A stretch of 64,000 bases of DNA from Escherichia coli (lineage in GTDB: Bacteria > Pseudomonadota > Gammaproteobacteria > Enterobacterales > Enterobacteriaceae), in NCBI RefSeq assembly GCF_024223415.1, contig NZ_CP100500.1. The stretch is one strand, 5' to 3'. Below the pieces are notes generated by a model, which saw only the letters and a program-made list of their open reading frames with translations, had not been told where the DNA came from and made no database searches. Both the position numbers and the translations under genes were made by a program. Shown here one piece after another: positions 18,743 through 49,107 of this stretch (positions are counted from its first letter, which is position 1; every line of letters begins with the position of its first letter).

Positions 18743-20857
18743 TCAGTCAGCCACTAATAGCGGACTAGGGACACCAGATGATGAAACAAACAGCCCTTTT
18801 ACGGCACGGGTTGCAGCCACATGCAGTAACGCGCGCTCATTAAATAATGCATCACGCTGTTCAACGGGATCATCGGATGCTAATGCTTTTATTTCCGGCA
18901 CAACGCCTTCGTTAATCCCCACCAGGAACACATACTGGAACTCAAGCCCTTTAATACGGTGCATCGTTGCAACCCGCACGCCAGGGCGTGCATCGCTGTC
19001 ACCGCTATCATTGCCTAAATTAAATGTCTCAATTCCGGCGTCATTCAGTGCTGATGCGTAGCGGTCACAAGCATGTTTAGTACGCGCAGTAATGCAGATA
19101 TCCTGAGAACGAACCTGATTCGCCAGCAATGCCTGAATTTGCTTGACGAGCGTTGCAGCCTCTTCTTTGAAATCTGCCGCATGCGTAATCATGGGCTTTT
19201 CCCCGTGCAGTAATGACAAATAATCATTACTGGTATCCGCTTCGCCATCGAGGTTATCAACCTTCACACCAGTTAACAGCCCAACAGCAAATTGACGCGT
19301 CTCTTCTGTGGTCCGATAGTTAATCTTCAATTTTTTACTGCGACGACCACGGACGTTAATACCACACTGACCAAGAACGACCTTATTGCGATAAATACGC
19401 TGATGCCCATCCCCGACAATAAACAGATCGTTGGGCGACTCGGGAACCAGGCTGCGAATAAGAGTAAATGCCGGGGCACCGATATCTTGAGCTTCATCGA
19501 CCACAATACTGCTATAAGGTAGTTGGACCTGCTTTTCTTTAAACAGAACAATAGCCTCATGCATGGCATCGCCCATTTCGCGCAGTTTGGCACGCGCCAT
19601 TTGTGCTCTGAATTCTTCAAAGACTGGCCAGATTTTCGCCCGTTGAATACGGGATAACGCTGTACCACGTCCAACCCGGCTGACTTTGAGGTATTCCTCC
19701 CGGGTGTAAACCGCATTTGGCTGGACAACGCGTTGCCACTCTTCAGCATAGAAATTATCAGGTAGCCCCAGTTCGGCAGGTGCCTGCTGCAAGGCATAGT
19801 TCCAGCATTTGCGTCGCCCTTCATCGCTGTCGTATACCACGCGGAAATCATAACCGTGGCGTTTTAGTTGGTCGCTCATCCAGGCATCAATGTTAACGAC
19901 GTCAATACGCGCCATCTCTTCTCGCGTACACAACCGCTGGAGATTAGCGCGAATATCTGCCGCCAGGTTACGCGTAAAGGTCGTGAAAAGTACCTTCTTA
20001 CCGGGTTTATCTGCCAGACGCTGAGATAACCACCGCGCACGGTGCATCGCAACAACCGTTTTCCCTGTACCTGCACCGCCCAGTACTCGTACCGGACCAT
20101 TAGCGGGCGACTCCACCAGTTTTCGCTGGCTCGGATGCAGAAATACACGCCATTTTTCTAAAGGCGCATTAAGCATCTGCAACAGCTCCTGTTCATTTTC
20201 AACGACATGGAAGCGACGTTTACTTCGTTCAATCGCCTCCATAAAGTCGTTGGTATCAACAGGCTCATCACGATGATCGTTAAACTCTTCCAGCACTTCC
20301 TGGTAATCCAGCCCTTCTGCCAGCCAGTGCAGAGGTTCCCAGGCTTCTGCTGGCATTATGCTTTCAAGTTGGTTAAGCCCGGCTTCATCGGTAAGCGCCA
20401 TCACCTGATCAATAAAGACAGGCGGCACGCCCAGGGCCAGAATCTGTTCCGCGCTGTAAGCCGCGAAGAGTTTCGGTTTATCAACCACCGCTTCCGGTGC
20501 CGGTTTGATATAGCTAATATCAATAACCTGAATCGCGCCGGTAACTGGGTGAATCGAACAATCATGCCGCCGCGCCCAGTCGTATGCTTCGTCGTGTTTA
20601 TCCACCCACATCAGCATATACAGGGCACCCTGTTCAGGTTTCAGAACAATGCCGCGATAAGTTTGATCGATTCGCACCGAATGGACATTTTTACTGCGCG
20701 CATCGTGGATCTTTTCATAGTTAAGTCCATTACTGGTCGGGTCCTGACGGAATTTGGAGATGAATTCCTGCACCTTTTTTTGCTGTGCTTTTGGGATCCG
20801 CGCGAATGCGCCCAGAAAACCATCAGAAAGTGCCACCTTGGGCGTTTGCACCGTCAT
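18743..20857 (-). CDS. UvrD/PcrA-like superfamily-1 helicase with ~250-aa N-terminal extension (last gene of four-gene defence operon)
   Basis: Walker A VLGGAGTGKTVVAMHR, Walker B IVVDEAQDI, C-terminal motif VATMHRIKGLEFQYVFLVG. The start ATG overlaps the stop of the upstream 2113-aa gene (ATGA). Confidence 0.75.
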   Translation of the reverse strand: MTVQTPKVALSDGFLGAFARIPKAQQKKVQEFISKFRQDPTSNGLNYEKIHDARSKNVHSVRIDQTYRGIVLKPEQGALYMLMWVDKHDEAYDWARRHDCSIHPVTGAIQVIDISYIKPAPEAVVDKPKLFAAYSAEQILALGVPPVFIDQVMALTDEAGLNQLESIMPAEAWEPLHWLAEGLDYQEVLEEFNDHRDEPVDTNDFMEAIERSKRRFHVVENEQELLQMLNAPLEKWRVFLHPSQRKLVESPANGPVRVLGGAGTGKTVVAMHRARWLSQRLADKPGKKVLFTTFTRNLAADIRANLQRLCTREEMARIDVVNIDAWMSDQLKRHGYDFRVVYDSDEGRRKCWNYALQQAPAELGLPDNFYAEEWQRVVQPNAVYTREEYLKVSRVGRGTALSRIQRAKIWPVFEEFRAQMARAKLREMGDAMHEAIVLFKEKQVQLPYSSIVVDEAQDIGAPAFTLIRSLVPESPNDLFIVGDGHQRIYRNKVVLGQCGINVRGRRSKKLKINYRTTEETRQFAVGLLTGVKVDNLDGEADTSNDYLSLLHGEKPMITHAADFKEEAATLVKQIQALLANQVRSQDICITARTKHACDRYASALNDAGIETFNLGNDSGDSDARPGVRVATMHRIKGLEFQYVFLVGINEGVVPEIKALASDDPVEQRDALFNERALLHVAATRAVKGLFVSSSGVPSPLLVAD

Positions 20858-23800
20858 TTGTCACCTCCGGACAGATGTTGCAATGTATTTTCGTCAATTG
20901 GCCCGAATGCAACGTGCCAACCTCTGGTTGTGAATAATGGAATAAATTCTTGATTATCAATAATCAATGCCCATTTTTGTGATGGCCAGGCGAGATCGGC
21001 TTCCGCAATAATTTCACCTTCATCATTTTGCAATTCGTAGCCGAGAGTCGGCGCAGAGAGAGAATGAGACTGAAGCAACGCGATCTCTTCAGCGCTTAAT
21101 AAGCCAAACTCAATAATCTCAGCCCAACTCTCATCAGTCTCTGGTACTGCCTCTGGCGTTGCCGAAACTTTAGTGTCAACGCTTTCCTGCGGTAAATGCA
21201 CGGCTTTACGGCTGGTAAAGGTCATATCCGGCAGGAACTGTAACAGGTTTACCAGTCGCCAGAAGCCATTGAGTCCCGCTTCATAACCGTCATCCTGCGT
21301 ATAGCGATCGTCAAAACAGATATGCAAACGCAGCCAGCTGCGCATTTGTGCGACGCTGGTCGTCGGTTTAATGGCTTGTTGTGGCAACACCGAAGCCAGC
21401 TCAATAAATTGCTGCGATGAGTTACAGCTATCGAGTAAACCACCAAAGACAAACGGTTCGTCTGGCAAAAGCTCTGCTAGCCGCCAGGCTGGCGCGTTTT
21501 CCTGCATTTCATAGGCATACTTTTGTTTCGTTCCCGCGTCCTGTGACTTCTTCACATCCAACCACACCCAGGCATGTGCAGCAGCCATTCTCTGCCATAA
21601 CTGCGTTCTTCCGCCCGGATCGGCGAGATAATCCAGCAGCAGTGCAAAACTGTTGCGTTCCCGGAACGACGCTTCAAGGGCCGCAAAGTTGGTATCGTGA
21701 AACAGGTTATAAAACTTAGGCTGTTTCATATCCGGGTTATGCCCAAGTCCCAGGACATCCTGAACATGTTTAAGCCCAGGCTCTTTGAGATCGGCCCACG
21801 TGACTGTCCACACCCAGAAATTACCGCTATCCCGAATCGCCTGGCGTTTTTGCACATCCTCTGCGACGCTATTTTTGTGGAACGCAAAGCCATCAAGGAA
21901 AATAGCCACCGGTTTAATGACATCAGACTGCATAAGCGGATATAGCACGTAATCCGGGCGACAAGGGATCCCCACCGCCTCTTTAGCGCCTAAATCCACC
22001 TGAGCTTTAAGATGCCAGCTCATCATCGGTTCGCTGCGGGTGTTAATAATCCACCCAGCGCCCTGATGCGCGTAACTGCGACTGACAATCAGGTTTTTAT
22101 TTTCTTGCAGGCAGCTAATAAACCGTTTTTCCAGCTCACTGCCCATCATGGCTTCGAGGGAAATGTTTTTGATGGAATCAATTACCCGTATCGAATCTCT
22201 TGCCTGCAAAATTTTCGCCAGCAAGAGACGCGCCTGATCGCGGGAGACATACTTCATGCGCCCACGGTCACGGTAAGCGTAAACGCAACGATAACAACCA
22301 TCTTTATGCGTATCATTGTTGCAACTGCATTCCACTATTGCCTGATAGGCCAGTTCAAGTAATTTCAGCAAATTGTCGGGAGTGCGCATCAGCTCTTTAA
22401 GAGAACCAGTTCCCCCCGGGACGGTATCGTAAATCACCAGATACTGCCTCCAGGATTCGCCTTCATTTTCCGGCTCGCGGTACACAACGCCTTTCAGGTG
22501 ATCGACATTCCCCTTGAAGTAATGTTTAAGGCCGAGCTGGATCGCCGCCCCAAGAGAAGCCTCCACGACACGGTCATTACTGTAACTGCTTACCGGGAGC
22601 AGAATACGCAACGCTTCTGACTCCAGCTGGCGATAGAGATAGAGATAATCTTCGAACTTCGCCTTTTCCGGTTCCGTGCGATATTTGCAGCTCAAATCAT
22701 GACGTGGTTCATGATCGCGAGGACGCTGCACCATGCCGCACCCGAGGCAAACTTTAAACCCGGTTCGCTTCTTCGCTTCTCCGGCAATCATCAACTCATT
22801 GGCATCATCCGCCATTTTGCCGAAGTTGATATCCCGCAGGGTGACTTTGCTTAAAAATTCAAAACCAAACGGAACTTCGCCTTCCTCAATCGCGTATGCC
22901 GCCGATACATCTTCTTTTTCGAAACTAACCAATAGCTGACGCTGGAAGAAAGCAGGTTCACGGCTGTCGCTATCGTCGCTGATCTGGCTATCACGTGCGC
23001 TGGCGCGGGCATAAACCTGGCGAAGTTTCAGCAGCGTGGTTTTTTGTCCGGCATCGGCCCACCCCGGTGTGCCACATTTCGGGCAATATTTATGCTGGTC
23101 GCCCGTCTGGTCGATATTTTCGCTGTAGTTACAGTGGCTACAGATACGCCAGTTCTCCGGCTCAGAGACCTTCAGGTCTATCTGCTCAATTTCAACTTTA
23201 TGCCCACCGGCATAGAAATTATTCAGCGGAGCCAGCTCAGCCAGCGCCGTTGATGCCGGGCGTTCATATTCGAAAGTGGTGTTTTGATATTCACGCGCTT
23301 CCCCGCCTTCTTTACGCCGCCAGAGCACAGAACGTAACGTAATACCGGCTTCCGGGAAGGCGTAGTTAGGCAGCAGACCTTCATCCGTGAGGAAATTCAG
23401 CGTTTGCTTATTGTTGATTTGATTGACCAGCGCCATCAGCGCCTGCCGTTCTGAAGTCAGTTCGCGCATATCGCTGTCAAAGTTTTGATCGCGCGGCGCG
23501 TTCTCCAGTTTATCGATGCTGCGCTTGAGTTTATCGATGCGTGAGCGCAAAGATTTGCGATCTTCCACCAGCAGTTTTAACGCTTCTTCGATACGCTGCA
23601 CCAGCGAACGTTGCCCTGGCGCGCCCTGAAGATAAGACAACAGCTGTTGGCGAGTTTCTGCGGCAAGATCGGGGAAGATCGCCGTAAATTGTGCAGCAAT
23701 CTCCGCATGATGCTGTTCGATATATCGCAGTAAGTTATACGGAAAACCCGATTTACGCCCGAACTCCAGCTCATCCAGCATCTGTTTGACGTTTTTACAG

Positions 23801-26800
23801 ATAGCGGATTCTGGTACACCGGTTTTCACCCAGTTATCCATACAAAAAGCTGCCAGCTGGCGTTCGAGAATAGCCGTTGCATTGAGGAAGACGCCAGGAG
23901 CCTGCACCTGGCCCTGCATCATCTCCAGCGGTTCTTCAAAGAAAAACTGATCGTGCGGGTTCCCTTCTGCCACGGTAATGTTTAACGCGTTACCATCTTT
24001 ACGACCGGCGCGACCAATACGCTGCAAGTAGTTGGCCTGAGCAGGTGGGACAGAACAGAGTAAAACGGTGGAAAGATCGCCAACGTCAATACCCATCTCC
24101 AGCGTCGGTGTTGCCGACAACAGGTTGATATTCCACGGTTGGTTGCCGCGGTAGAACGATTTTTCGGTGGCTTCGCGATCTTCACGGCTAAGCAGCCCCG
24201 TGTGTTCTGCGCCCTGTACGCGCGCGATGTCCATGTTCTCCCAACGCCAGGTCGCCGTATTGTCGACTTCCTGGTAACGACCTTCACAACGTAAAGAGAG
24301 ACAAGGCGCATTACGCCACTGCCAGCCTTGATCGGCCGGAGCCCGGACAACCTCACGGCAACATGAACAATTAAGCTGAACGACGTCACGGCTCACCACC
24401 AGCGCCGAAGGCACCAGTCCCCAGGCTTCACGCCCTTTGGTGTCAAAATCTTTTACTACTCCGGCTATTTTCAACGCCGTAAACAGGCGTCGTAACACTG
24501 TTTCCGCAACGCTACTGATAAACAGATTATTGCCGTTACTCAGCGTGCGATTGATCCAATGCTGATACCAACTGGGGTTAGACTTCGCGCCAATCAGGCG
24601 ATGGAAACCATTAATTTTTTCAAACGACGCATAAGCCGGTTTACGCGTTTTCGGACCGATAGAAGGCATATAGCGCGAGGTACGCTCTTTTTGCGTCATC
24701 ATAAAGGTCGTGCCATCACGGCGATAACTTTCGAACGCCGGATGCATAACGGCCCCGGCCTGGCGTTGATACCAGATAACCCCCAGCGCCAGGTGCGCGA
24801 CCTGCTCGACGCTCACACCGGACATCTCATCACCCAGCTCTTCACAAAGCTGTTGATGCAGGGCGGTAATTGCCGGATTAAAGCGTTCTTTATCCACTCC
24901 GGCAACGGCATAACCGGTGGCTTCCAGCGTACGTCCGATACGCGCGCGCAGGGTGAATTCGCTGTACACCTCCCAGTCGAGGCGCAGGGAAACCAGCTCC
25001 GGCAGATCGGAGTTCTCCGCCAGTTTGCCTTCATTTTTCAGCATCTGATAATCATTCAGCCACTGCATATTTGGTGCGATGAAGTTCGCTGCAAAATGAG
25101 CATCGTCCGGTGAACGTTCACGCGTTTGTTGGCAAACACGCGCCGCGAACGCATCCAGCGGTAATGTCTCTTTTTCGCCAAGAACACTGGCGATTTGCCC
25201 ACGAATCATCAGCGGCCAGGTACGGGCAGTAAAGAAGCTGGCACGATGCGCGGCGTCTTGTACCGAGTCAGAAAACGTAATCAGCTTTTTATGTTCGTTG
25301 AACTGGCTGCCATAAAGCTGGTGAATCATCACCGCCGACAAACTGGCAGCCCGTGACCCCAGGATCGAAATCCCCTGTTTGCTGTTGCAGTACGGGCATT
25401 CATTAGCAAACTCCAGCTCGTCCTTACGCTCTTTGAGCATATCCGGGATCAGTACCTGCAACAGTTCCGTATGACCGCAATGTCCACACTGGACGCTGGA
25501 CTGTCGGTTCAGTTTCAGACAGGTAGGACACAGTTTCTGGTGTGCGCCACTGACCGCTTTTTCGTTGTTATCCGGGAAAGCAAGGACGATGGAGCGTCCT
25601 TTTTCAAAGAACTGGCGATAAATGCCGTCGAGGTCTGTTTCCAGCTGAACGCTTTGCCCATGACGCAGGCTGGCCCAGCCAGTTGCGTGGCAGTCACGGC
25701 AGTGGATAACCGGCAAATAGTGTTCGCGATCTTCCACCGCCACATCATCGGCAAACACCAGTCGGGGCGTTTTCGCCACGCTGGCGACCAGACGACGCAT
25801 CTCACGAAGCCACAACTGGGAGCGCAGTTGCACAAACGGCAGCACCGGACGCGCTTTCTTCGCCTGGAGACGTTTTTGCCGATCGTGTTCCGTTTCCGGT
25901 ACTTCGAGACGTGCCTGTGCGATCAGCGCCAGAATGCTTTGCAGCACGCGTCGGGCATGGTCGGCGCTTTCTGCCAGCATGACCTGGAGATTTTCCAGAC
26001 ACTCTCGTTCAGAGAGGATCCCGCCTTGCAGATCATGGAGTAAGACATGCATCACGCTGTGGCGGCGTAACAGTGACCCCAGCGCAATACGCTTTTCACG
26101 CCCGTCGTCGCTCTCCAGATCGTCCGGGAGTTGCAAGTCGCTGTCGGGGAACCACAAAGGGATTTGCCCGTTAAGATACGCTACCGGGGTAGCGTAACTC
26201 TGCGGGTCCAGGGCCGAAGCGACCTCCGGCCCCGGATACTGACTGTACGCAATGGCGTAATCCTGCAAGTACTCCGCTGCCGTGTAGCGATCTTCGCGAA
26301 TAACGGCGTCATCGGTAAACGGCTGGTCAAAGATTGTTTTTGCGTAATCGAGCAGTTGCCCCAGCTCGTCGCCGACGGTAGCTGATGTCCCGACGCAGGC
26401 GAATCGTTGGTTATCTACACCTATGTGATGCTTCAGACGTCGCACCAGACAGGCCAGATCCGACCCTTGCGCGCCATCAAACGTATGCAATTCATCCACG
26501 ACCAGGTAACGCAATGAACCGGGCTGGTTGTAACGCCAGAGCGGCTGATCGCCAGGGCGCATCAGCAGGTAGTCGAGCATTTTGTAGTTGGTCAACAGGA
26601 TGTCCGGCGGGCTTTCGCGCAGCGTGTGCTTGCAGGTAATGACCTTTTCTGCCGACATTTTTTTGCTGGGTTCGATTTCGCTGTCGCCGACAAACAGGCC
26701 GACGGTCACCTTGCCATGCAGTTGTGTATCGCTGGCGATGGTTTTGGCGAAACGGCTGGCCTGATCGGTTGCCAGGGCGTTCATCGGGTAGATGATAATC

Positions 26801-27195
26801 GCTTTAACCCCGGCTTGTGACGCGCCCGCGCAGTGGTTGAGCAGCGGGAACATAAAGCATTCTGTTTTACCGGAGCCGGTACCGGTAGCAACCAGCGTCG
26901 GCTGTGGCGCGTCGCTTCCCAGACGCTGAAATGCCCGGGCCTGATGCGCGTGCGGCGGGAACGGCAGCGTCAGATTAGGGAAGAAATTCAGCGGTAAGTC
27001 ACTTTTACGAAACGGCAACTGGGCGGAAAGGTATGGTCCTTTCAGCAGCGTTTCGGGCTGGGCCAGAAATTGCTCCAGCATTGAGACATTATCGTTATTC
27101 TCACCGTTAAACAGCGGACTGTTTAGCGGGAACGCCGCCCGTAAAAAGGCGGCAACGCTGTCGGCGACCTGCCGACTGACAACGGATGGCAGCAT
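20854..27195 (-). CDS. 2113-aa DEAD/DEAH-box helicase with Cys-rich DUF1998-like region (DrmA+DrmB-like or DruE-like giant helicase)
   Basis: Motif I ATGTGSGKTECF, motif II VVDELHTFDG, motif VI QRIGRAGRKDG about 800 residues later, then CxxC clusters (CSHCNYS…CPKCG, CLGCG, CSCNND…CYRCV). C-terminal PDYVLYP…IFLDGFAFH patch might be a nuclease-like fold. Confidence 0.7.
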   Translation of the reverse strand: MLPSVVSRQVADSVAAFLRAAFPLNSPLFNGENNDNVSMLEQFLAQPETLLKGPYLSAQLPFRKSDLPLNFFPNLTLPFPPHAHQARAFQRLGSDAPQPTLVATGTGSGKTECFMFPLLNHCAGASQAGVKAIIIYPMNALATDQASRFAKTIASDTQLHGKVTVGLFVGDSEIEPSKKMSAEKVITCKHTLRESPPDILLTNYKMLDYLLMRPGDQPLWRYNQPGSLRYLVVDELHTFDGAQGSDLACLVRRLKHHIGVDNQRFACVGTSATVGDELGQLLDYAKTIFDQPFTDDAVIREDRYTAAEYLQDYAIAYSQYPGPEVASALDPQSYATPVAYLNGQIPLWFPDSDLQLPDDLESDDGREKRIALGSLLRRHSVMHVLLHDLQGGILSERECLENLQVMLAESADHARRVLQSILALIAQARLEVPETEHDRQKRLQAKKARPVLPFVQLRSQLWLREMRRLVASVAKTPRLVFADDVAVEDREHYLPVIHCRDCHATGWASLRHGQSVQLETDLDGIYRQFFEKGRSIVLAFPDNNEKAVSGAHQKLCPTCLKLNRQSSVQCGHCGHTELLQVLIPDMLKERKDELEFANECPYCNSKQGISILGSRAASLSAVMIHQLYGSQFNEHKKLITFSDSVQDAAHRASFFTARTWPLMIRGQIASVLGEKETLPLDAFAARVCQQTRERSPDDAHFAANFIAPNMQWLNDYQMLKNEGKLAENSDLPELVSLRLDWEVYSEFTLRARIGRTLEATGYAVAGVDKERFNPAITALHQQLCEELGDEMSGVSVEQVAHLALGVIWYQRQAGAVMHPAFESYRRDGTTFMMTQKERTSRYMPSIGPKTRKPAYASFEKINGFHRLIGAKSNPSWYQHWINRTLSNGNNLFISSVAETVLRRLFTALKIAGVVKDFDTKGREAWGLVPSALVVSRDVVQLNCSCCREVVRAPADQGWQWRNAPCLSLRCEGRYQEVDNTATWRWENMDIARVQGAEHTGLLSREDREATEKSFYRGNQPWNINLLSATPTLEMGIDVGDLSTVLLCSVPPAQANYLQRIGRAGRKDGNALNITVAEGNPHDQFFFEEPLEMMQGQVQAPGVFLNATAILERQLAAFCMDNWVKTGVPESAICKNVKQMLDELEFGRKSGFPYNLLRYIEQHHAEIAAQFTAIFPDLAAETRQQLLSYLQGAPGQRSLVQRIEEALKLLVEDRKSLRSRIDKLKRSIDKLENAPRDQNFDSDMRELTSERQALMALVNQINNKQTLNFLTDEGLLPNYAFPEAGITLRSVLWRRKEGGEAREYQNTTFEYERPASTALAELAPLNNFYAGGHKVEIEQIDLKVSEPENWRICSHCNYSENIDQTGDQHKYCPKCGTPGWADAGQKTTLLKLRQVYARASARDSQISDDSDSREPAFFQRQLLVSFEKEDVSAAYAIEEGEVPFGFEFLSKVTLRDINFGKMADDANELMIAGEAKKRTGFKVCLGCGMVQRPRDHEPRHDLSCKYRTEPEKAKFEDYLYLYRQLESEALRILLPVSSYSNDRVVEASLGAAIQLGLKHYFKGNVDHLKGVVYREPENEGESWRQYLVIYDTVPGGTGSLKELMRTPDNLLKLLELAYQAIVECSCNNDTHKDGCYRCVYAYRDRGRMKYVSRDQARLLLAKILQARDSIRVIDSIKNISLEAMMGSELEKRFISCLQENKNLIVSRSYAHQGAGWIINTRSEPMMSWHLKAQVDLGAKEAVGIPCRPDYVLYPLMQSDVIKPVAIFLDGFAFHKNSVAEDVQKRQAIRDSGNFWVWTVTWADLKEPGLKHVQDVLGLGHNPDMKQPKFYNLFHDTNFAALEASFRERNSFALLLDYLADPGGRTQLWQRMAAAHAWVWLDVKKSQDAGTKQKYAYEMQENAPAWRLAELLPDEPFVFGGLLDSCNSSQQFIELASVLPQQAIKPTTSVAQMRSWLRLHICFDDRYTQDDGYEAGLNGFWRLVNLLQFLPDMTFTSRKAVHLPQESVDTKVSATPEAVPETDESWAEIIEFGLLSAEEIALLQSHSLSAPTLGYELQNDEGEIIAEADLAWPSQKWALIIDNQEFIPLFTTRGWHVAFGPIDENTLQHLSGGDK

Positions 27196-32126: not shown

Positions 32127-32128
32127 GA

Positions 32129-34987
32129 TTAACCCTCCGCTCCGGTGATAACAGCAATTACCTGAATGTAGGGTTCTTTTTCAGTCGTCATGGTGTCCTC
32201 AATCCATTCGATATAGCTGTCAAAATTGTGTTCGATTTCGCGTTGTCTCTGCTCTTTACGGCTCTGCTTGACTGACAATTGCTGTTTGTTATCGGCAAAA
32301 TCCAGCTCAAGTTGGCTCAACTGCCGCCCACGCAAAACGTCCAGCTTTTGCAGATGCTCATTCAGTTGCTGGTTAATGTGCGTTTCAAACGCATTCCGAT
32401 CATGGATGAATACCTCCCGGGCATGAGCAATAGCCGCTTCAAGTAAATCCTGCTGGCGTTGGTGATTACGATCTTTACCGCCGCTGTTAGTCAGCTTGTT
32501 ACTCAACTGCGGATGACGTTGTAAAAACTCAGCGAATGGCTGACTGCCGATTAGCGATTCACGGTTAAAGCTCACCACTATCCACGGGTTCACCATCGGA
32601 TGTGATTTACGGTTCGGGAATAACCCGGAAAGAATGAAGTGATCTTCATCGGGTTCAAGCAGGTATGGCAGACGGATAACTGGTGCCTGATGACGACCAA
32701 AAGCCGAAGAGATTTTATCGTCCAGCCACTGCACTACCGGGTTGATTTGCCAGAGATACTGCACATCGGGCCAGGCATGTTGCTCACCGCGAGCGCGCGC
32801 AATCGCGTCGGTGATGACGGTTTTATCCTGACTTAAATAGAGCTGCCAGTTCTCCGGGGCAATTTCAGGCGGTAGCTGGTTGAAGCGGCGGCGTAACTCC
32901 TCCGGAGCCACCAGCGACAAGGTATTATCAGGCAAGGTTTCATACTGGATAGTTTGACCACTGGCTTTCAGGTAACCCAATGCTCTTTCGCAGTACGCCT
33001 GTTCGCTGGCAAACAAGCTGGTGTCTGCTTCGGTGACCATTGAGGCATCGCTGGAAACCGCACTGCATATTTCGCCAAACAGATCGTGTTCGGCGCTTTC
33101 CGAGACGTTGCTGTTCAGCAGTTGATCAAACAGGCTGGCACCATCATCCTGCATCATGAACTCTGCAACCTGCTCTTCTTCCTCTTCCTGGGTAAATTTG
33201 CCGGTAAACTCCGAACTGTCCCCAATGTTCTTCTGCGCCTGTTCGTCTTTGTTGATCAACACTTCCAGTACGCGCATATCGCCATTGATCTGTGGTTCGC
33301 TGGCCTCAGTAAGCAGATAGCGGATTTGAGGCTGATGTTTTTGCCCATAGCGGTCAATACGCCCGTTACGTTGCTGGAATACCATCAACGACCACGGAAT
33401 ATCAAAGTGAATCATTTTGTGGCTAAGGTGATGCAGGTTGATCCCTTCAGATGCCACATCCGAACAAACCAGAAGACGCAACGGCGACTGCGTTTTACCA
33501 AAGGCTTCTACGGTTTCCATCAATACCGTATCGCCCTGATCGCCGCGCAGCGTGGCGATCTGGTCATCTTTCAATTTCAGATCCGCTCGCAGTTGCTGTT
33601 CGAGGAACTCCAGCGTTTTAATACTTTCGGTGAAGATCACCAGGCGATCTTCCGTGTTATTGGCTTTCCAGGCGAGGTCTTTTCGGATGGTGTCGAGCAG
33701 CAACTGGTATTTGCTAAACTGGCTGGCATCAATATTATTCAGCGCCAACAGCAATGACTCCAGTTCGTTGATCTGGCTCTGGCTATTATGATCTTTACGG
33801 CTCTCAAGACGCTTCAGACGATTCGCCACGACGCTGGCACACGCCATCGGGCTGGAAAATAGCGCTTTTTCGAGGGTTATCTTGAACAGACGACCTTTGT
33901 TAGACTGGGCCTGTTCATCGTCATCATCACGGAACTGGCTCTCAACCAGACGACGGTATGCTTCTTCTTCGGCACCGGATGCCAGGCGAGTCAATTTGAC
34001 AATATTGCGCTCGGGAAACTCGCCGGACATCTGATCTTTCACGTCTTTTTTGAAGCGACGGACAACCAGATTTTTATCGGCAAAGTCGGCGTATTCATAC
34101 TCTTTCGGGTTGGCGATCGCCGTCGGGTCAAGCATGTTCATCAGGCTGGCAAAACTTTCAGCCTTACCATCATGCGGCGTTGCTGAAAGCATAATCAGCG
34201 TATCGCTACGCCCGGCGAGCAGTTTTGCCAGTTTACTGCGTAACGAACTGGTTCCACGTTCTGCGACGTTATGGGCCTCATCAATGACAATAATATCCCA
34301 CCAGGCATTTTCCAGATGGTGACGATATTCAATGTCTTGTTTCAGCGTATCGATGGAGATAATGGTCTTGTCAAAATAGTGGAACGGGTTGTGGTTGGTT
34401 GGGATGCGGTTACGCACCTTTTGTAAACCAGCAGAATCCAGGCGGGTCAATGGGATCGCAAAACGGCTCCAGAACTCCTTCTGGAATTGTGTCAGCATCG
34501 ATTTGACCGCCAGAACCAGAATACGTTTTCCGCGCCCACGACGGATCAGCTCCGAAACCAGAATACCCGCTTCCAGTGTTTTACCCAGACCGACAGCGTC
34601 GGCAATGAGTATCCGCTGACGCGGTTGTGCCAGCGCCATCCGCGTAGGATCGAGCTGAAACGGCATGGAATCCATCGCCGCCAGATGACCAAAATGGACT
34701 TTACTGTCTGTCGGTACGCGTTGGCGTAACTGACTTTCGATATACAACTGCGCCGCTTGATAATTGGCGGATTCATCTTCCACCAAATGCGTTTTTGCGG
34801 GATCCAGGATCTCTACTTTTTGTTCCAGTTTGGTCAGAAATAACCCTTCTTTACCGCGCACAAGCTCTGAAATACCATCGCAGGTCAGCAAATACCCACC
34901 ATCACCACTGTCATCCGCCCGGCGAATACGCCATTCGGCATCACGAATAACCACCCGCATACCAGGTGCATAATTTTGCTTATTCAT
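32129..34987 (-). CDS. 952-aa SNF2-family helicase (DrmD-like), first gene of operon
   Basis: SNF2 Walker A LIADAVGLGKTLEAG, DEAH box IIVIDEAHNV, motif III LMLSATPHDG, C-terminal helicase motif …FQQRNGRIDRYGQ. It ends 2 nt before the methyltransferase start. Confidence 0.85.
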   Translation of the reverse strand: MNKQNYAPGMRVVIRDAEWRIRRADDSGDGGYLLTCDGISELVRGKEGLFLTKLEQKVEILDPAKTHLVEDESANYQAAQLYIESQLRQRVPTDSKVHFGHLAAMDSMPFQLDPTRMALAQPRQRILIADAVGLGKTLEAGILVSELIRRGRGKRILVLAVKSMLTQFQKEFWSRFAIPLTRLDSAGLQKVRNRIPTNHNPFHYFDKTIISIDTLKQDIEYRHHLENAWWDIIVIDEAHNVAERGTSSLRSKLAKLLAGRSDTLIMLSATPHDGKAESFASLMNMLDPTAIANPKEYEYADFADKNLVVRRFKKDVKDQMSGEFPERNIVKLTRLASGAEEEAYRRLVESQFRDDDDEQAQSNKGRLFKITLEKALFSSPMACASVVANRLKRLESRKDHNSQSQINELESLLLALNNIDASQFSKYQLLLDTIRKDLAWKANNTEDRLVIFTESIKTLEFLEQQLRADLKLKDDQIATLRGDQGDTVLMETVEAFGKTQSPLRLLVCSDVASEGINLHHLSHKMIHFDIPWSLMVFQQRNGRIDRYGQKHQPQIRYLLTEASEPQINGDMRVLEVLINKDEQAQKNIGDSSEFTGKFTQEEEEEQVAEFMMQDDGASLFDQLLNSNVSESAEHDLFGEICSAVSSDASMVTEADTSLFASEQAYCERALGYLKASGQTIQYETLPDNTLSLVAPEELRRRFNQLPPEIAPENWQLYLSQDKTVITDAIARARGEQHAWPDVQYLWQINPVVQWLDDKISSAFGRHQAPVIRLPYLLEPDEDHFILSGLFPNRKSHPMVNPWIVVSFNRESLIGSQPFAEFLQRHPQLSNKLTNSGGKDRNHQRQQDLLEAAIAHAREVFIHDRNAFETHINQQLNEHLQKLDVLRGRQLSQLELDFADNKQQLSVKQSRKEQRQREIEHNFDSYIEWIEDTMTTEKEPYIQVIAVITGAEG

Positions 34988-35058
34988 CGGTTTTTCTGTC
35001 TATTTGGGGCAGTGGCGGTAACGTCATCCTGAAAAATGTGGCGCGGCACACTGCGATA

Positions 35059-35093
35059 AAAAAGAGGGCCTTAAAGATATCATGAAGGCCCCC
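35059..35093 (-). terminator. candidate rho-independent terminator between the Druantia-like operon and the SNF2-led operon
   Basis: On the minus strand: gggcctt-(12 nt loop)-aaggccc followed by tctttttt. Confidence 0.4.
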
Positions 35094-35210
35094 GGCAAAG
35101 TGACAAAATGGGAGGGAATGCGCATAAATTGCGCATGATTTTCAAACAAAAATTATTAAAAAGTGAGCTGGGTCAACTCCCCTGGAAGATATCCCCAGGG
35201 AAGCAATTAT

Positions 35211-38200
35211 TTATCCAGCGATAATATAACTCCTAAGGTCATTACCCGGGGCAACAGCTCGCGCTCGCGTGTTTGCCAGCCGTTCAACTTGCTGCGGTAC
35301 TCGCAGGGCAAAATCAAAGAAGGTATCTTCAATACAGCGCCAGTAGCTAAGCCCCATGTCGAGCAGGACATAATGCTGACTGCCATCGCTGAAGGTGACT
35401 GTCAGTTCTCGTCCATGCTCCGTACTCTGGTTATCCCCCGTTAACCAGCTAATTGCTCCCGGCCACGCAGGCCCCAGATATCCTTCTTCAAGTAAAGTGG
35501 TCACAACCTGCTGACGATCTTCCTCATTAAGCCACGCGTTATAGAGAGCGTCGTGTTGGCGAGAGTTGTAATCCAATTTTTTGACGCAAACAGTGAGGCT
35601 GGCGCGTTCCGCCATTCCCTGTTCAACCAGCTCGGTTAAGATTTCACCTAACAAACGCGCCGTGAATGGGCTATTAAGATAACGATCGCTGTACTCAACA
35701 TGCGTTATCTCTTTGTGGCGGGTAAATGCCTGCTTCCAGCCAGCGTGCTGTTGCGTGACTAACGACCAGAAACGCGAACCAAAACCTTCCAGCGGCCCGT
35801 CCAGTTGTTCACAGAGATTGATGCGCACCGCCCCGGTGGGTAAGGCGGGCAGTAAATCTTCTGCACTTAAGGTCTGACCCGAGAAGTTTTTTCCGGACGT
35901 TCCTTTAAGTGTCACTACTGGTGAAGACGCACTTTGTCCCCATAATTCACCAGGGGCAACGGTAGCGCTGTCGTCTGCGGCCCACTGTTGGCTTTGCCCT
36001 TCGCGAGTCACCTGCGCAAGCCAGCGCCCCTTTCCTTGCATGAGTTGCGCAGTGGCAATGGATTTCACTTGTAAGCGTCCTCCCGGCATCGCCGCCAACG
36101 CGGAAAGCTGATGTCTGGAGCTATCAGTTAAGTTTTCCAGCGGCGTGGCCACCAGCAACTCAACATTCCCACCGGAGGAGGCAAACTGGAGCAACTCTTT
36201 AAATAATGGCCATTGGGCAAAGTCCCACTGTTCCTGCGGCCCCGCAAGAACCAGCGAGCAGGAGTCATAAATCTCGCTGTTCAGGCATTGCGCAATACGT
36301 AAACTCAGAGGGTTAGTTTCAACCCGGCTACCATCGCCGAAGTACTGATATTCTGGCGCGAGGTTAAGTCGCTGCAACCGTACATTGGTAAGCAGGGTTA
36401 ATGCATGGTGACGATCTAATCTGTTGACATAATGCTGACTGTCGTAGCTGAGCAAGCAGTGGTGACAAAATTTATCGCAACTGCAATCGAGCAATTTTCT
36501 GGCGTAATTAAAGACATCAGCCCAATGGTCGATCAATTGCACTGCATAACCTGCACCACCCGCATTATTGTCGTATATGAAGATGGAATATCCGGTATAG
36601 CCATTGATATCGCGCGCTTGCTGCGTCGTCACGCCCAGCTCAGTATTTTCGATACCCAATTTATGCGCTAACCCTTCACGCAAAGCGACCGCAAGGGAAC
36701 GCGCGGCAACCTCATCACGGATCAACAGGCCATTATCATCATTGAGTTGCAGCTCAACCATATCTGTACGACTGCTATATCCCAACCACAGATCTTTATG
36801 CACATGACCGTGGCACAATTTATTGCTCCCCTGACGATCGTTACTGCCCCCTCGCAACAGGTAATGCGTATTTTCCCGCTCTGGGTTCTTTAGATTTTCA
36901 GGGGTACGCTGGGGTTGAGTTTGAGATTCTGCCCGACCACATGAGAGGCAAATTGCGTAGCCGTGCCCAAATTCCCCTTCACTGAAGTGGAACAATTCCC
37001 CACTATGGCTAAAACGGTAACGTCCTAGCCCAGCATCGGGTAAAGAAACCCACACCGAAGACGGTACAAGAACACGTGGATCTTTCCAAGGAAGTTGTGC
37101 AGGCATGGATACATCATTATGTGCCTGATAACGAATATCTGTCGCAAAACCAACAGGCTGTAAATAACGCTTCACATCAAGTTGCTGTATATCCGCTTTG
37201 CAGTGACTACATTCGACAGGACGGGTAGTACTGGTTGCCCCCGCACCACATTTACGGCAATGCCAGAACCACGGAATGTGATGATCGCCTGACAGCTCCT
37301 GCCCGCTGGCAAGTACCTTGCCAAGCATAATGCCCGAGGAACGATATACTTTTCCGCCCAATACCACATCTGCACCAGGCGCATACTCGCGTAATGCTGT
37401 AGGTAGATCACGGCTGGGCAATTTTTCAATACGACGAGAAAAGCTTTCTCCCCCTTCATTAGGGTCAGCCTGAGTAGCTTTTATTGCACGACGTTTTTCC
37501 AGCTCATCTGCCGTCAGATAATTGAAATTGACGACGCCAACCGGGAAACCATGCCCCGGCAGGAACGCTTCACTAATGAGTTTAGAAAACAGATATGCAC
37601 CGCGATAATCACGAAGCTGATAAGCGATGGCTTTACCTGCTGGCGTTTCTTCCCACGCGCTGTTATCCGCCTTCAACGCTTCGATATTTTCCAACAGTAT
37701 CGCAAGTTGGCTTCTCCAGCGGATATCAACCTGCTGCATCATTGCTTGTGTGCGGGTCAAGAGCTGGGTTGCCGTCAATGACTTCAGGACGGTTCCCTGA
37801 GTAAGGCGTTTAAGTTTATCCGCCAGCTCATCGGCCTGGTGATTTAACCAATGAAGAAAACGAAGACACTGGCTCTCATCACCTTCAAAGAACCATTTGC
37901 AACTCAGTTTTGTCGCATCAGGTACTTCAGCTCGTAAAAACAGACCTAAAACCAGGGCATTAACATGTCGTTGAACAATACTACTGCTCCCAAAACGAAC
38001 CCGTGGCGCACTGGCAGTAGTGTTGAACGCCCAGAGGGGGTCTTTGAATACCTCCATTCCATGCGCCGTGTTTTTACATAACGTAATGGCAGCAGATGCA
38101 CTCTCTCCACGACGCCCCGCGCGACCTGCACGCTGCAAATAATTTGCCGGCGCTGGAGGAACGTTGTTCATTGCCACCAAACTCATACCACCAATATCCA

Positions 38201-38693
38201 CCCCCATCTCCATGGTCGTGGAACAGTTCAGCACATTAACTTTGCCTGACTTAAATTGTTTTTCATTAAACTGGTTCTGCTCAGGCGTTCTCTGCGCAGA
38301 GTGTTCCTCCAGACGATACCAGCTATCTTTCAGGGCCAGTCGGTCGCTGCGAGTAGACCATAATCCTTCCTCGCGGGCATGTTGAATCAGCGCATTACTT
38401 TCCAGCCACTCCAGACGTTCTTCTCGGGCGATTTCTCCACCACCAGACAAACGCCAGTGACGTACAGGAAGCTCAGGCATTTCAATCAACACTGCTTTTT
38501 CAGGTGCAATTTCTTTGCTACCCGGCAAATACGGAGAGTATCCCAGCAACGTGACGTCTAACGCACGTCGAGTATAGGGGCAACGCCACACTTGCTTTGG
38601 ACTGTAAAATTCAGCCTGTTGTTTAATATCCAGCTGATAACCCGACTCAAACTGACGTAAGCAGGGTCGAATTGCATCCCAGACCTCAATCAT
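35211..38693 (-). CDS. C-terminal segment (1160 aa) of a DruE-like giant helicase; frame open upstream to the A7 tract at 38830-38836
   Basis: Helicase motif VI …ANYLQRAGRAGRRGE… near its N-terminus (matching the C-terminal lobe of the upstream ORF), then Cys clusters (CRKCGAG…CSHCKAD, CLSCGRAES, CSCDKFCHHC). Architecture parallels the 2113-aa protein. Confidence 0.7.
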   Translation of the reverse strand: MIEVWDAIRPCLRQFESGYQLDIKQQAEFYSPKQVWRCPYTRRALDVTLLGYSPYLPGSKEIAPEKAVLIEMPELPVRHWRLSGGGEIAREERLEWLESNALIQHAREEGLWSTRSDRLALKDSWYRLEEHSAQRTPEQNQFNEKQFKSGKVNVLNCSTTMEMGVDIGGMSLVAMNNVPPAPANYLQRAGRAGRRGESASAAITLCKNTAHGMEVFKDPLWAFNTTASAPRVRFGSSSIVQRHVNALVLGLFLRAEVPDATKLSCKWFFEGDESQCLRFLHWLNHQADELADKLKRLTQGTVLKSLTATQLLTRTQAMMQQVDIRWRSQLAILLENIEALKADNSAWEETPAGKAIAYQLRDYRGAYLFSKLISEAFLPGHGFPVGVVNFNYLTADELEKRRAIKATQADPNEGGESFSRRIEKLPSRDLPTALREYAPGADVVLGGKVYRSSGIMLGKVLASGQELSGDHHIPWFWHCRKCGAGATSTTRPVECSHCKADIQQLDVKRYLQPVGFATDIRYQAHNDVSMPAQLPWKDPRVLVPSSVWVSLPDAGLGRYRFSHSGELFHFSEGEFGHGYAICLSCGRAESQTQPQRTPENLKNPERENTHYLLRGGSNDRQGSNKLCHGHVHKDLWLGYSSRTDMVELQLNDDNGLLIRDEVAARSLAVALREGLAHKLGIENTELGVTTQQARDINGYTGYSIFIYDNNAGGAGYAVQLIDHWADVFNYARKLLDCSCDKFCHHCLLSYDSQHYVNRLDRHHALTLLTNVRLQRLNLAPEYQYFGDGSRVETNPLSLRIAQCLNSEIYDSCSLVLAGPQEQWDFAQWPLFKELLQFASSGGNVELLVATPLENLTDSSRHQLSALAAMPGGRLQVKSIATAQLMQGKGRWLAQVTREGQSQQWAADDSATVAPGELWGQSASSPVVTLKGTSGKNFSGQTLSAEDLLPALPTGAVRINLCEQLDGPLEGFGSRFWSLVTQQHAGWKQAFTRHKEITHVEYSDRYLNSPFTARLLGEILTELVEQGMAERASLTVCVKKLDYNSRQHDALYNAWLNEEDRQQVVTTLLEEGYLGPAWPGAISWLTGDNQSTEHGRELTVTFSDGSQHYVLLDMGLSYWRCIEDTFFDFALRVPQQVERLANTRARAVAPGNDLRSYIIAG

Positions 38694-38755
38694 TAAGTGG
38701 TTAACTAACGATTTCCAGTGAGCCTGCTCAGGTTGTATTGCCGGAAAGACTGCGA

Positions 38756-41533
38756 TTAATAGCTTAATGACCCGGTTATAATGGCGATCGCGTATTTGTG
38801 GCCAAAGTTGATCACGTTTCTGCCCTTTGTTTTTTTATCTGGCCCCTGGAGCATTTTTACCGGGAAACGTGCCCCCATCCAGCGAGGGTATTGCTCGTTT
38901 TCGTAAAAAACGGCACTGTTTTCACGGATAAAGAAATCAAGAGTAATCTTCAATAAATTACGCCATTCCGCTAATTGCTTATCGGGATCGGGTAATAATG
39001 TCTTCCAGTCCTGCGGGCAGGTTGTAACTTTATCAATAAATGGATAGTGAATGGCTACCAGACCCAGACTTTCGAGGGTCCAGGCATTTTTAGGGCGGCG
39101 ACCAAACTCGCTGTATAAACAAAAATCTGCAAACTGTTGTTTAGTAAGATCAAGCCCAGACAATTCTTTAAAACTGCCTCTCATTCTATCGGCAAGGTCC
39201 ACACTGCCAACCAGCTGTTCAGACAGCGTTTGCCATGACATGGTTTTCTTCTGCTGATTGCCAGAGTTAACCTGAAGTATTTGCATCGCTTCAGCATGCT
39301 CCGGGCTTAAGGAACTCACCATCGGCTCAATAATTTTAAGTGACTGAATGTCCGCCGGGCTAAGCTCCTCATTCGCAGCCATCGCTTTTTTCAGCGCGTC
39401 GATGGAATTTTTTAAAGGGAGGACAGAAAACTGGCTAATAACTTTCTCTAACAGTGCACAGTGTGCCGGGCTGAGTTTTGCTGAAGGCTCTGTAATATTT
39501 GCCAGCTCCTGGTAACAAAGAGCTCGCAACGTCGCTTTATCGGCATCCTGCTGTAAGCGGGCTGAAATGCGAGCGGTACCCTGACGCGAATCCGTAAAGG
39601 TGAGCAAGCGTCGACCATTAAACGGTCCTAACTGCTCTTCTCTTGTTTGCGGTAATGGAGAAAACTCCAGCAGAGTAGGAATAATTTCATTTAAAAAAAA
39701 GGGCGCGCCGAGCCGAAGCGGACGGAATAAAGGATTATTTTTCCGTTGAGTGTCACCACAGCAAACACAAGCAAAGGAGTTATTGCGCCCCTCACCTCGA
39801 GATTCCGGTCTTAACAGGTTTATTTCATAGTGCTTTTGCGCTTCACTATCAATTTTCCCCGCCGTCGTTTCTTCCAGTGAAATGATATATTTTTCACCAT
39901 CGCTCGCAATCAGACGATCAAATTGAGAGTTATTGTCTAATTCGTCGTTGTCTTCATCTTCAGAATAAACATCTACATCAAGAGCAAACTCATCCACTTC
40001 GGCAGCGGCTGGTTGCGCTACCAACCAGTTCGTTCCATCACCGCGCATCTCCTCTTTGGCAGACAAATAAGCTGAACCACACCCGGAGCAACGTAAAACT
40101 TCAAATACCGGCGCTCCACAGTCACAATATTGGCGCTGCTCAAACCATACCTGACCAAATGGCCAGTCACTCTGATTTAATTCATGTGCTTTATGTGAGC
40201 ATTGTTTGTTTGAACATGCCCATAGACCCGCCAGTGTTCTGATAAACCCATGCATACGTAATGGCGTAAAAGCCAGTTCACCTTCTCGCGATCTTGCCAT
40301 TAGATCGAGGAGTTGCAGTAGCTCACGGTGATTAATATCTGGCCAGGTTCTTCTGGCAACATTGAGCAACTCACTCAAACGTACTGCCTGCCGTCCGGGA
40401 TGAGTTAACGCCTGACGCAATTGCTGGGCCACACGGTAATGACAAAGCTGTTGGTAAAGATCCTGAGGGCTCAGGGATTTAAGAGAAGTTAAAGATGTGG
40501 GGTATTCATGACGAATCAGCGACTCCGATACCCGCGGTATTTGTCGATAACCGCGAACCACTTTGACATCACGTTCTGTAACGCCCGCGAGATCAGCGAC
40601 AAATTTAGCAAGCTCCTTATTACCTTCAGGAGAGTCTTCACCAATAGTGGCAGAGGTCGCGATAATCTGCACAGGTTTATCTGTGCCGGGTCCAACATTG
40701 AAAGCCTGCATAACACGACGTAAAAGCAGCGCTAACTCAGCAGCCTGAGAACCAATATAACTATGGGCTTCATCCAGGACGATATACTTTAACATCCCCT
40801 GAGACTTTTCGATGATTGGGGCATCTTTACGACGAATCAGCATATATTCCAGCATGGTGGTATTCGTCACCATGATGGAAGGTGGTGCTTCATAAATGGC
40901 TTCCCGACTCAAAGCTTGTTCAGGTACTTTCAACTGATCTTCCTGAACTTCGTATTTGGTATGCCGGGTTTCGCCATTATATAGCGCGAAGCGTATTTTC
41001 CCCTTAAATCCGCGCGTCCATTCGCGAAGCCGCTCCTGTTGGCTGTTAATTAATGCATTTAACGGATACAAGAAAATAGCTTGTGTCCCTGTTAGTGACT
41101 GGCGGGTCGATTTTTGCTGACGAATAAGATCTTCCAGAACCGGTACCATAAAGCATTCTGTTTTCCCGGATCCCGTACCGCTGCTCACTAACAAGGATTT
41201 TTTGTCTTCCAGAATCGTTCGCCACGCAGTAAGTTGATGACGAAATGGCACTGGCGCTTTGCTCAATGCATCAACCAGCGGGCTGGAGATCAGCTTGTCC
41301 CGCAAATCCTCCATTGTTTCATCCGCAGGCATCCAGCCGAATGTACTTTCGAATACCGGGTCTGCAAGCAGTGACCCCTCCTGACCGGGAGGCTGAAAAT
41401 ATTGTGATTCCAGATAATGAGTCAACGACTTGCTCCGCAATGCCAACTGACTTACCACCGACCTCACCGCACGCTGATGAAGCTGATTTAGAAGTGGCGC
41501 ATAATGCAGTTGCTGAACGTCCATCAATGACAT
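38756..41533 (-). CDS. N-terminal segment (925 aa) of a DruE-like giant helicase; ends 2 codons... stop shortly after an A7 tract
   Basis: Motif I VSSGTGSGKTECFMVPVL, motif II VLDEAHSYIG, internal Cys clusters as in the 2113-aa paralog. It is in a different frame from the downstream 1160-aa ORF by exactly one nucleotide. Confidence 0.7.
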   Translation of the reverse strand: MSLMDVQQLHYAPLLNQLHQRAVRSVVSQLALRSKSLTHYLESQYFQPPGQEGSLLADPVFESTFGWMPADETMEDLRDKLISSPLVDALSKAPVPFRHQLTAWRTILEDKKSLLVSSGTGSGKTECFMVPVLEDLIRQQKSTRQSLTGTQAIFLYPLNALINSQQERLREWTRGFKGKIRFALYNGETRHTKYEVQEDQLKVPEQALSREAIYEAPPSIMVTNTTMLEYMLIRRKDAPIIEKSQGMLKYIVLDEAHSYIGSQAAELALLLRRVMQAFNVGPGTDKPVQIIATSATIGEDSPEGNKELAKFVADLAGVTERDVKVVRGYRQIPRVSESLIRHEYPTSLTSLKSLSPQDLYQQLCHYRVAQQLRQALTHPGRQAVRLSELLNVARRTWPDINHRELLQLLDLMARSREGELAFTPLRMHGFIRTLAGLWACSNKQCSHKAHELNQSDWPFGQVWFEQRQYCDCGAPVFEVLRCSGCGSAYLSAKEEMRGDGTNWLVAQPAAAEVDEFALDVDVYSEDEDNDELDNNSQFDRLIASDGEKYIISLEETTAGKIDSEAQKHYEINLLRPESRGEGRNNSFACVCCGDTQRKNNPLFRPLRLGAPFFLNEIIPTLLEFSPLPQTREEQLGPFNGRRLLTFTDSRQGTARISARLQQDADKATLRALCYQELANITEPSAKLSPAHCALLEKVISQFSVLPLKNSIDALKKAMAANEELSPADIQSLKIIEPMVSSLSPEHAEAMQILQVNSGNQQKKTMSWQTLSEQLVGSVDLADRMRGSFKELSGLDLTKQQFADFCLYSEFGRRPKNAWTLESLGLVAIHYPFIDKVTTCPQDWKTLLPDPDKQLAEWRNLLKITLDFFIRENSAVFYENEQYPRWMGARFPVKMLQGPDKKTKGRNVINFGHKYAIAIITGSLSY

Positions 41534-46747: not shown

Positions 46748-46753
46748 TCGATC

Positions 46754-47461: not shown

Positions 47462-47464
47462 GAG

Positions 47465-49032: not shown

Positions 49033-49107
49033 GGATCTTCACTTGCAGGCTTGAACAGCAGAAAATTTGCGAGCATGATCGCAATTATTTCACTGCCAGG
49101 GATATCA

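Follow-up and report, generated by a model that had tools for sequence, protein, structure and literature searches.

Gene content of the locus

The window analysed here is a 64,000-nt stretch of Escherichia coli DNA (assembly GCF_024223415.1, contig NZ_CP100500.1). According to the list of its open reading frames, seven large minus-strand genes, all co-directional, occupy positions 18743-44883, and their families were assigned with PADLOC, Pfam and NCBIfam profiles (Table 1). The defence block is flanked by the fim/nanC-nanM region and by tRNA-Leu(CAA). Over 38 kb the window is 99.97% identical to the chromosome of E. coli NCTC10444, where RefSeq annotates the same genes.

Table 1. Genes and features of the defence block
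Feature	Coordinates	Strand	Supporting evidence
armD, UvrD/GajB-like SF1 helicase, 704 aa, ~240-aa N-terminal extension	18743..20857	-	Pfam UvrD-helicase and UvrD_C; PADLOC GajB 123 bits
armC, YprA-family DEAD/DEAH helicase-nuclease, 2113 aa	20854..27195	-	Pfam DEAD 84-278, Helicase_C 993-1066, MZB 1549-1638
ArmC aa 1679-1807, Vsr-like PD-(D/E)xK nuclease domain	21775..22161	-	invariant D, DG..H, D, R
ArmC aa 2020-2109, terminal small Vsr-like domain	20869..21138	-	homologous to the ZorE C-terminal extension
armB, PglX/DrmMI-like N6-adenine DNA methyltransferase (type IIG-like), 1643 aa	27195..32126	-	PADLOC REase_MTase_IIG 960 bits, DrmMI 191 bits; Pfam Eco57I
armA, SNF2 (BrxHII/DrmD-like) helicase, 952 aa, intact	32129..34987	-	PADLOC DrmD 333 bits; NCBIfam DISARM_DrmD 350 bits (cut-off 610)
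druE C-terminal ORF, 1160 aa, DruE aa 945-2104 (rest of RecA2, OB-CON-MZB, two PLD-like domains)	35211..38693	-	PADLOC DruE3 1150 bits, profile 907-2051 of 2055; GenBank SRA02880.1
Frameshift poly-A tract, A7 (normally A8), after DruE codon 898	38830..38836	-	alignment to NCTC10444
druE N-terminal ORF, 922 aa (annotated start 41524) or 925 aa (ATG 41533)	38756..41524	-	PADLOC DruE3 981 bits, profile 4-865; GenBank SRA02879.1
druH (YjiT/STY4851 family), 1119 aa	41524..44883	-	PADLOC DruH3 2549 bits; NCBIfam YjiT_fam 984 bits (cut-off 150)
zorA2-zorB2-zorE, Zorya type II, divergent from druH	45095..48568	+	PADLOC ZorA2 1001, ZorB2 346, ZorE2 586 bits; RefSeq annotation
ZorE aa 277-367, extension homologous to the ArmC terminus	48293-48565	+	ArmC-ZorE comparisons

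Identity of the two helicase systems

ARMADA, the 'disARM-related Antiviral Defense Array', was defined by Bell et al. in 2025 (PMC12458937), and its type II has a strict gene order: SNF2 helicase, PglX-like methyltransferase, YprA-like helicase (ArmC) and GajB-like helicase (ArmD) (PMC12458937). The same order was found in the window, where four co-directional ORFs that abut or overlap encode a BrxHII/SNF2 helicase, a PglX-like methyltransferase, a YprA-like helicase and a GajB/UvrD-like helicase. ArmC combines the YprA-family DEAD and Helicase_C domains with the OB-CON-DUF1998/MZB region and is closest to the Druantia helicases; at its C-terminus it carries a Vsr-type PD-(D/E)xK nuclease followed by degenerate domains. 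The residues mutated in the published work occupy identical positions in the four proteins (ArmA K136/D236, ArmB G605/N971 (NPPW), ArmC K110 in Walker A and D234 in Walker B, ArmD K266/D454). The RelE-like N-terminal domain that Bell et al. reported for ArmD gave no Pfam match in the ~240-aa N-terminal extension. The armC gene is present in 525 of 5426 complete E. coli genomes, with 97-100% identity.

In the published systems all four ARMADA II genes are required and protection is conferred without abortive infection (PMC12458937); defence depends on the ATPase motifs of ArmA, ArmC and ArmD and on the NPPW motif of ArmB. Phage resistance has been demonstrated for loci nearly identical to the one described here (PMC12458937; 10.1101/2025.09.22.677730).

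In the neighbouring operon, druH lies directly upstream of druE and overlaps its start by 1 nt. DruH and both DruE fragments match the PADLOC profiles DruH3 and DruE3 end to end. The intact DruE allele is essentially the same protein as that of the solved structure PDB 9tu7 (4882 bits), and the published mutated residues are in place both in DruE (K121, D251, E252 and R1139) and in the ZorE of the adjacent Zorya operon (H226 and K231). A full-length DruE, of ~2100 aa with helicase, MZB and two PLD-like domains, is not encoded in one piece: all its parts are present and the frame is broken at 38830-38836. The Druantia type III locus would be, as its sequence stands, a degraded (or mis-sequenced) member of its type rather than a non-member. 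The druE gene was found in 540 of the 5426 complete genomes, and these counts for druE and armC agree with the published co-occurrence of the two systems.

[quoted passage not shown] The literature on the systems of this island comprises PMC12458937, 10.1101/2025.09.22.677730, PMC13192584, 10.64898/2026.05.13.724313 and 10.64898/2026.05.13.724758, and the paired ArmC/DruE systems are already described there, the pair having been published in 2025-2026.

A one-base frameshift in druE

The original prediction described the second helicase as a split protein of 925 and 1160 aa. Both ORFs do lie at 38756-41533 and 35211-38693, but they belong to a single druE broken by a 1-nt deletion. In a base-by-base comparison, the window has T7 (plus strand) at 38830-38836 where NCTC10444 has T8. 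The N-terminal ORF, which comprises RecA1 and the BrxA-like and Zn-barrel/MarR-like insertions, is identical to intact DruE up to aa 898 and then continues for 24 codons out of frame, and the 1160-aa ORF is a 100% identical suffix of intact DruE from residue 945. The break is located within the RecA2 insertions, between motif IV (aa 641) and motifs V-VI (aa ~1100-1139), and residues 899-944 are absent from both fragments. Among them are K900 and R914, which touch duplex DNA in the cryo-EM structure (2026 DruE preprint).

The tract was examined in the 523 complete E. coli genomes in which this segment is present. It is A8 in 522 of them and A7 in one, O55:H7 RM12579, an older assembly in which RefSeq flags the gene as 'frameshifted'. 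An A9 tract occurs in none of the 523, and the A9 allele (904 aa) is present in draft assemblies (P0269, five contigs). The split proteins SRA02879.1 and SRA02880.1 are neighbouring GenBank entries on one 536-kb contig, and in public data split DruE proteins are found on just one or two contigs. The RefSeq record of NCTC10444 has the reciprocal pattern, in which druE is intact and armA is frameshifted, with the indel at window position 34386. Phase variation at the A8 tract was also considered and rejected, as the A7 and A9 counts among the complete genomes are too low for a switch. The sequences of 943-952 aa that appear as 'truncated' DruE within its protein cluster are in fact ArmA, placed there by a clustering artefact, and do not represent further truncations of DruE.

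Judged by sequence, the split DruE is a frameshift allele and not an architecture: a single missing A accounts for the annotation of Druantia III as two genes. The druE copy would be either a pseudogene or the result of a homopolymer sequencing error, with roughly equal likelihood given the reciprocal armA/druE pattern of the closest RefSeq record. Under the error reading the genome would encode DruE whole, at 2104 aa; what is at issue is the condition of the gene and not the identity of the systems, and we place the probability of this reading slightly below one half. The indel sits in an 8-nt homopolymer; A8 is almost universal among the complete genomes, and the other A7 record is an older assembly; the split proteins are confined to one or two public contigs; and the near-identical NCTC10444, with its intact druE and a different 1-nt indel in armA, fits long-read homopolymer errors. 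Against this, independent -1 alleles (in two lineages) and +1 alleles (P0269, five contigs) at the same tract fit real slippage, and loss of defence genes is common.

A functional two-gene split of DruE, comparable to DrmA and DrmB of DISARM, is in our view very improbable. A helicase apart from OB-CON-DUF1998 does occur sporadically in other lineages (Bell et al., PMC12458937), and an ATG is available at 38693 in the downstream frame. However, the break falls inside the RecA2 insertions and not at the helicase/DUF1998 boundary, and it removes residues 899-944, with the DNA-contacting K900 and R914, from both products. The N-terminal fragment would also end in 24 out-of-frame residues, the allele is found in at most 0.2% of genomes, and RefSeq labels the same allele 'frameshifted'.

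With the frameshift allele at the A8 tract, Druantia III should be inactive as written, and the functional systems of the island should be ARMADA II and Zorya II only, unless the deletion is a sequencing error. A defence-system census or a prediction of phage susceptibility for this strain hinges on whether the missing A is real.

Homology of ArmC and DruE

Both giant helicases contain the motifs listed in the original prediction, at equivalent positions: GTGSGKTECF (ArmC 105, DruE 116), DELH at ArmC 234 and DEAH at DruE 251, and QRIGRAGR at ArmC 1058 and QRAGRAGR at DruE 1131. One motif needed correction, since ArmC reads ITFSDS (at 639) and not LTFSDS; the corresponding motif of DruE is LTFTDS (at 641). 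CxxC pairs are numerous in both proteins, and both match Pfam MZB/DUF1998.

The resemblance extends beyond generic helicase motifs, so that the two related giant helicases recognised in the original prediction are real. BLASTP aligned ArmC and DruE with 34% identity over 211 aa (5e-30) and 23% over 722 aa (2e-26), the longer alignment spanning RecA2 to the zinc-binding domain. When family alignments of 23 ArmC-type and 20 DruE-type proteins were compared with hhalign, a single alignment of 1395 columns was obtained (ArmC 76-1673 to DruE 103-1692, E 6.6e-77). It takes in the insertion block of ~700 residues that separates the RecA folds as well as the OB-CON-DUF1998 zinc-binding canopy, and only the last ~440 residues are left unaligned. 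There the nuclease modules are unrelated, being Vsr-like PD-(D/E)xK in ArmC and PLD in DruE. The C-terminal 444 aa of ArmC gave no Pfam or PDB match with sequence profiles. A profile comparison of the first and last of its C-terminal domains detected no similarity and so did not show the two 'Vsr-like' domains to be a duplication. On sequence grounds, ArmC and DruE are true paralogues, YprA-family (DUF1998/MZB) helicase-nucleases with common accessory domains. The BrxA-like, Zn-barrel and MarR-like insertions were probably in place in their common ancestor, and the different nucleases would have been gained later.

The original prediction had placed DISARM-like and Druantia-like operons side by side. 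The Druantia part stands, with DruH and DruE, and beside it lies the DISARM-related ARMADA II (SNF2, PglX/DrmMI-like methyltransferase, helicase and UvrD); DISARM proper does not fit, as the helicase is fused and ArmA falls below the DrmD cut-off. A DrmA-DrmB fusion within a class 1 DISARM is accordingly a most improbable reading of the 2113-aa protein. It would agree with the neighbouring SNF2 and methyltransferase genes, which match the DrmD and DrmMI profiles, and the locus is reportedly labelled 'DISARM I-related' by DefenseFinder. On the other side, the operon encodes one fused protein instead of separate DrmA and DrmB, it lacks a PLD gene corresponding to DrmC, ArmA scores 350 bits on the NCBIfam equivalog DISARM_DrmD with its cut-off of 610, and the additional UvrD gene is foreign to DISARM. 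In PADLOC, ArmC scores 348 bits on DruE3 and 324 bits on DruE1, as against 49.5 bits on DrmA. Its best PDB match is DruE 9tu7 (167 bits, 3.7e-48), followed by 9wae (a 1970-aa helicase) and then YprA/MrfA, and DrmA is absent among its PDB matches at E <= 0.001.

The proteins are clearly diverged, as had been predicted, with ~23% identity at the protein level. The suggested exchange of modules between them was not supported, since blastn similarity is limited to 40 nt at Walker A and the nucleases at the two C-termini are unrelated; on the same blastn result, gene conversion of armC and druE was rejected. That the two genes are linked by a recent duplication, by gene conversion or by a swap of domains in the island is almost certainly wrong, because, although the genes are adjacent on the same strand and share an identical 10-aa Walker A segment, the 40-nt match is just 87.5% identical, no block of elevated identity appears in the 1395 columns, the C-terminal modules are non-homologous, and the identity ladders of armC and druE run in parallel down to ~50% in Vibrionaceae. 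These parallel ladders point to long, separate co-inheritance of both genes.

A terminal domain common to ArmC and ZorE

We also observed homology between the final ~90 aa of ArmC and the extension at the C-terminus of ZorE, its neighbour in the island. The PADLOC ZorE2 profile matches ArmC 2021-2096, and the two segments were aligned by BLASTP (39% identity over 57 aa, E 8e-8), by hhalign (probability 97%, E 4.8e-11) and by hmmsearch (44.7 bits). The same pairing of ArmC and ZorE termini is found in Enterovibrio. A separate structural model of the terminal domain (pLDDT 84) matches small Vsr-like/PD-(D/E)xK nucleases. In an exhaustive search with this domain, the best 150 of 1532 matches comprised ArmC at full length, what are most likely fragments of ArmC, and a single protein with NERD and P-loop domains; genuine ZorE sequences rank below these best 150.

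The ZorE extension is present in 90% of Druantia-associated ZorE proteins and was described by Wu et al. in 2026 without a family assignment (PMC13192584). As Wu et al. do not mention ArmC (PMC13192584) and Bell et al. do not mention ZorE (PMC12458937), and none of the three papers in which ArmC or ZorE appears describes it, the link between the two proteins seems unreported and would be new. The end domain of ArmC and the ZorE extension may form one module that couples Zorya II to ARMADA II, for instance if both bind the same DNA intermediate or the same partner; we regard this as a tentative idea with perhaps one chance in four. If it is true, the 'synergy-competent' subset of ZorE would track ArmC at least as much as DruE. 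The specific new points of our analysis are the one-base druE frameshift and this common terminal domain, of which the latter is the only element with some novelty, and it offers a small testable lead on the wiring of the island's three systems.

Synergy of the systems and a proposed mechanism

The possibility of functional cross-talk between the two helicase systems, raised in the original prediction, is right and already known, because the synergy of ARMADA and Druantia has been experimentally demonstrated by others (PMC12458937; 10.1101/2025.09.22.677730). ARMADA II and Druantia III synergise in ATCC 8739 (Bell et al., PMC12458937) and likewise in EHEC EDL933 (Li et al., 10.1101/2025.09.22.677730), and against many phages their joint protection exceeds additivity. 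Li et al. explicitly called DruE and ArmC related YprA-family helicase/nucleases with different C-terminal nucleases (10.1101/2025.09.22.677730). Even at ~50% identity, in Enterovibrio, we found armC and druE on one contig. ARMADA helicases are the closest relatives of the Druantia helicases, bridging Druantia and DISARM, in systems that travel and work together. This relationship, which had needed a dedicated phylogenomic study to establish, was read off the raw sequence alone in the original prediction.

For a near-identical E. coli protein, the 2026 preprints describe DruE as a dimeric helicase-nuclease of 3'-to-5' polarity on DNA. Its loading site is the ssDNA/duplex junction; once loaded on exposed ssDNA, it unwinds the DNA and degrades it via the PLD domain. 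DruH is described in the 2026 preprints as a nuclease/sensor. The polarity of the DNA that activates DruE is disputed in the published studies, which favour either 3'-tailed substrates or 5' overhangs generated by DruH.

By analogy, from the homology of ArmC with DruE and MrfA and from the genetics, ArmC would work like DruE. It appears to have the whole translocation apparatus of DruE and MrfA and probably tracks on phage ssDNA or replication intermediates. As a translocase, it could thread phage ssDNA that has become exposed beneath the OB-CON-zinc 'canopy' and so deliver its own fused nuclease, while methylation by ArmB, or remodelling by ArmA/ArmD, may supply the discrimination of self from non-self. 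The synergy with Druantia could be based on shared DNA intermediates or on physical contact between ArmC and DruE, both being possible.

Comparison with known systems

The ARMADA II operon shares gene order, protein lengths and the positions of the tested catalytic residues with the ARMADA II of E. coli NCTC 12900, ATCC 8739 and EDL933 OI-172, and it has the same genomic partners as in the published E. coli strains, Druantia III and Zorya II. No difference of substance was found; armA is intact in the window, whereas it is frameshifted in the closest RefSeq record. The Druantia III genes correspond to the E. coli cluster whose DruE is that of 9tu7, from which the window differs by the -1 frameshift in druE after codon 898.

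With class 1 DISARM (DrmD, DrmMI, DrmA, DrmB and DrmC), ARMADA II has in common an SNF2 helicase, an adenine methyltransferase of the PglX type and a YprA-family helicase with a DUF1998 module. In contrast to DISARM, the helicase and DUF1998 are fused in ARMADA II, the nuclease is a fused Vsr-like domain and not a separate PLD protein, a UvrD-like gene is added, and ArmC resembles DruE far more than it does DrmA.

The DNA-repair helicase MrfA/YprA (PDB 6znp) shares the core RecA1-RecA2-OB-CON-Zn(DUF1998) with ArmC and DruE, which score against it almost equally (74 and 72 bits, respectively). Unlike the two defence proteins, MrfA has 751 aa, without the ~700-aa insertion block and without fused nucleases.

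Organization and reading frames of druE and armA

The druE and armA genes were found to be separated by 223 nt, and a terminator-like hairpin directly past the druE stop codon and a sigma-70-like promoter were predicted between them on the basis of consensus matches. The putative hairpin and promoter are consistent with the location of druE and armA in separate transcription units.

In the RefSeq record of the close strain NCTC10444, armA was frameshifted (CC vs CCC; window 34386, corresponding to L001 19176 in NCTC10444) and druE was intact, which is the reverse of the lesion pattern in the window. Either the reciprocal lesions are really present in these two close strains, or long-read indel errors are involved. 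A +1 (A9) allele of the druE poly-A tract (window 38830-38836) was noticed in draft E. coli assemblies; its 904-aa product (protein entry P0269, five contigs) ends with DKKKQRAET, and this allele was present in 0 complete E. coli genomes. The 90%-identity cluster of DruE (P0001) in our protein collection also contained ArmA sequences of 943-952 aa (e.g. P0284 and P0286); their inclusion is a clustering artefact, which could distort the counts of truncated DruE.

Coordinates of the features described
Feature	Sequence	Position	Strand	Remark
nanM direct repeats	window	15451-15695 and 48791-49035
ArmC terminal domain	window	20869-21138	-	small Vsr-like PD-(D/E)xK
Promoter, druE-armA gap	window	35079-35106	-	sigma-70-like; consensus match only
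Hairpin past druE stop	window	35165-35179	-	terminator-like; consensus match only
ZorE C-terminal extension	window	48293-48565	+	small Vsr-like PD-(D/E)xK
Phosphorothioate-binding HNH endonuclease gene	window	48952-49980
682-aa ORF	window	50603-52651	-	RefSeq: hypothetical
tRNA-Leu(CAA) (leuX)	window	53329-53413	-
Enterovibrio loci	JAJUBC010000007.1	L004 1-18548 and L005 6674-26402

Island borders

The ARMADA-Druantia-Zorya block is flanked on both sides by a 245-nt internal piece of nanM, in direct orientation and with 92.7% identity between the copies, the second of which is annotated as a nanM fragment. The 682-aa ORF between the HNH endonuclease gene and tRNA-Leu had no match in Pfam or PADLOC. 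The similarity to NCTC10444 stops within leuX, at 53352; beyond it NCTC10444 carries a CP4-like element (CbtA/YeeU, RadC, antirestriction), and the window has a different continuation.

Relationships between ARMADA and Zorya

The last ~90 aa of ArmC are homologous to the C-terminal extension of ZorE. This terminal domain was absent from all other island proteins, and the link is unreported in papers on this defence island.

In Enterovibrio sp. ZSDZ42, ARMADA, Druantia and Zorya are all present, but arranged differently from the window: DruH-DruE-ArmA-ArmB is followed by a gene for a 981-aa UvrD-like protein, two small ORFs, ZorABE and finally ArmC-ArmD. Since ZorABE lies between ArmA-ArmB and ArmC-ArmD, Zorya II is nested within the ARMADA operon, and this interrupted arrangement contradicts the "strict gene order" published for type II ARMADA (PMC12458937).
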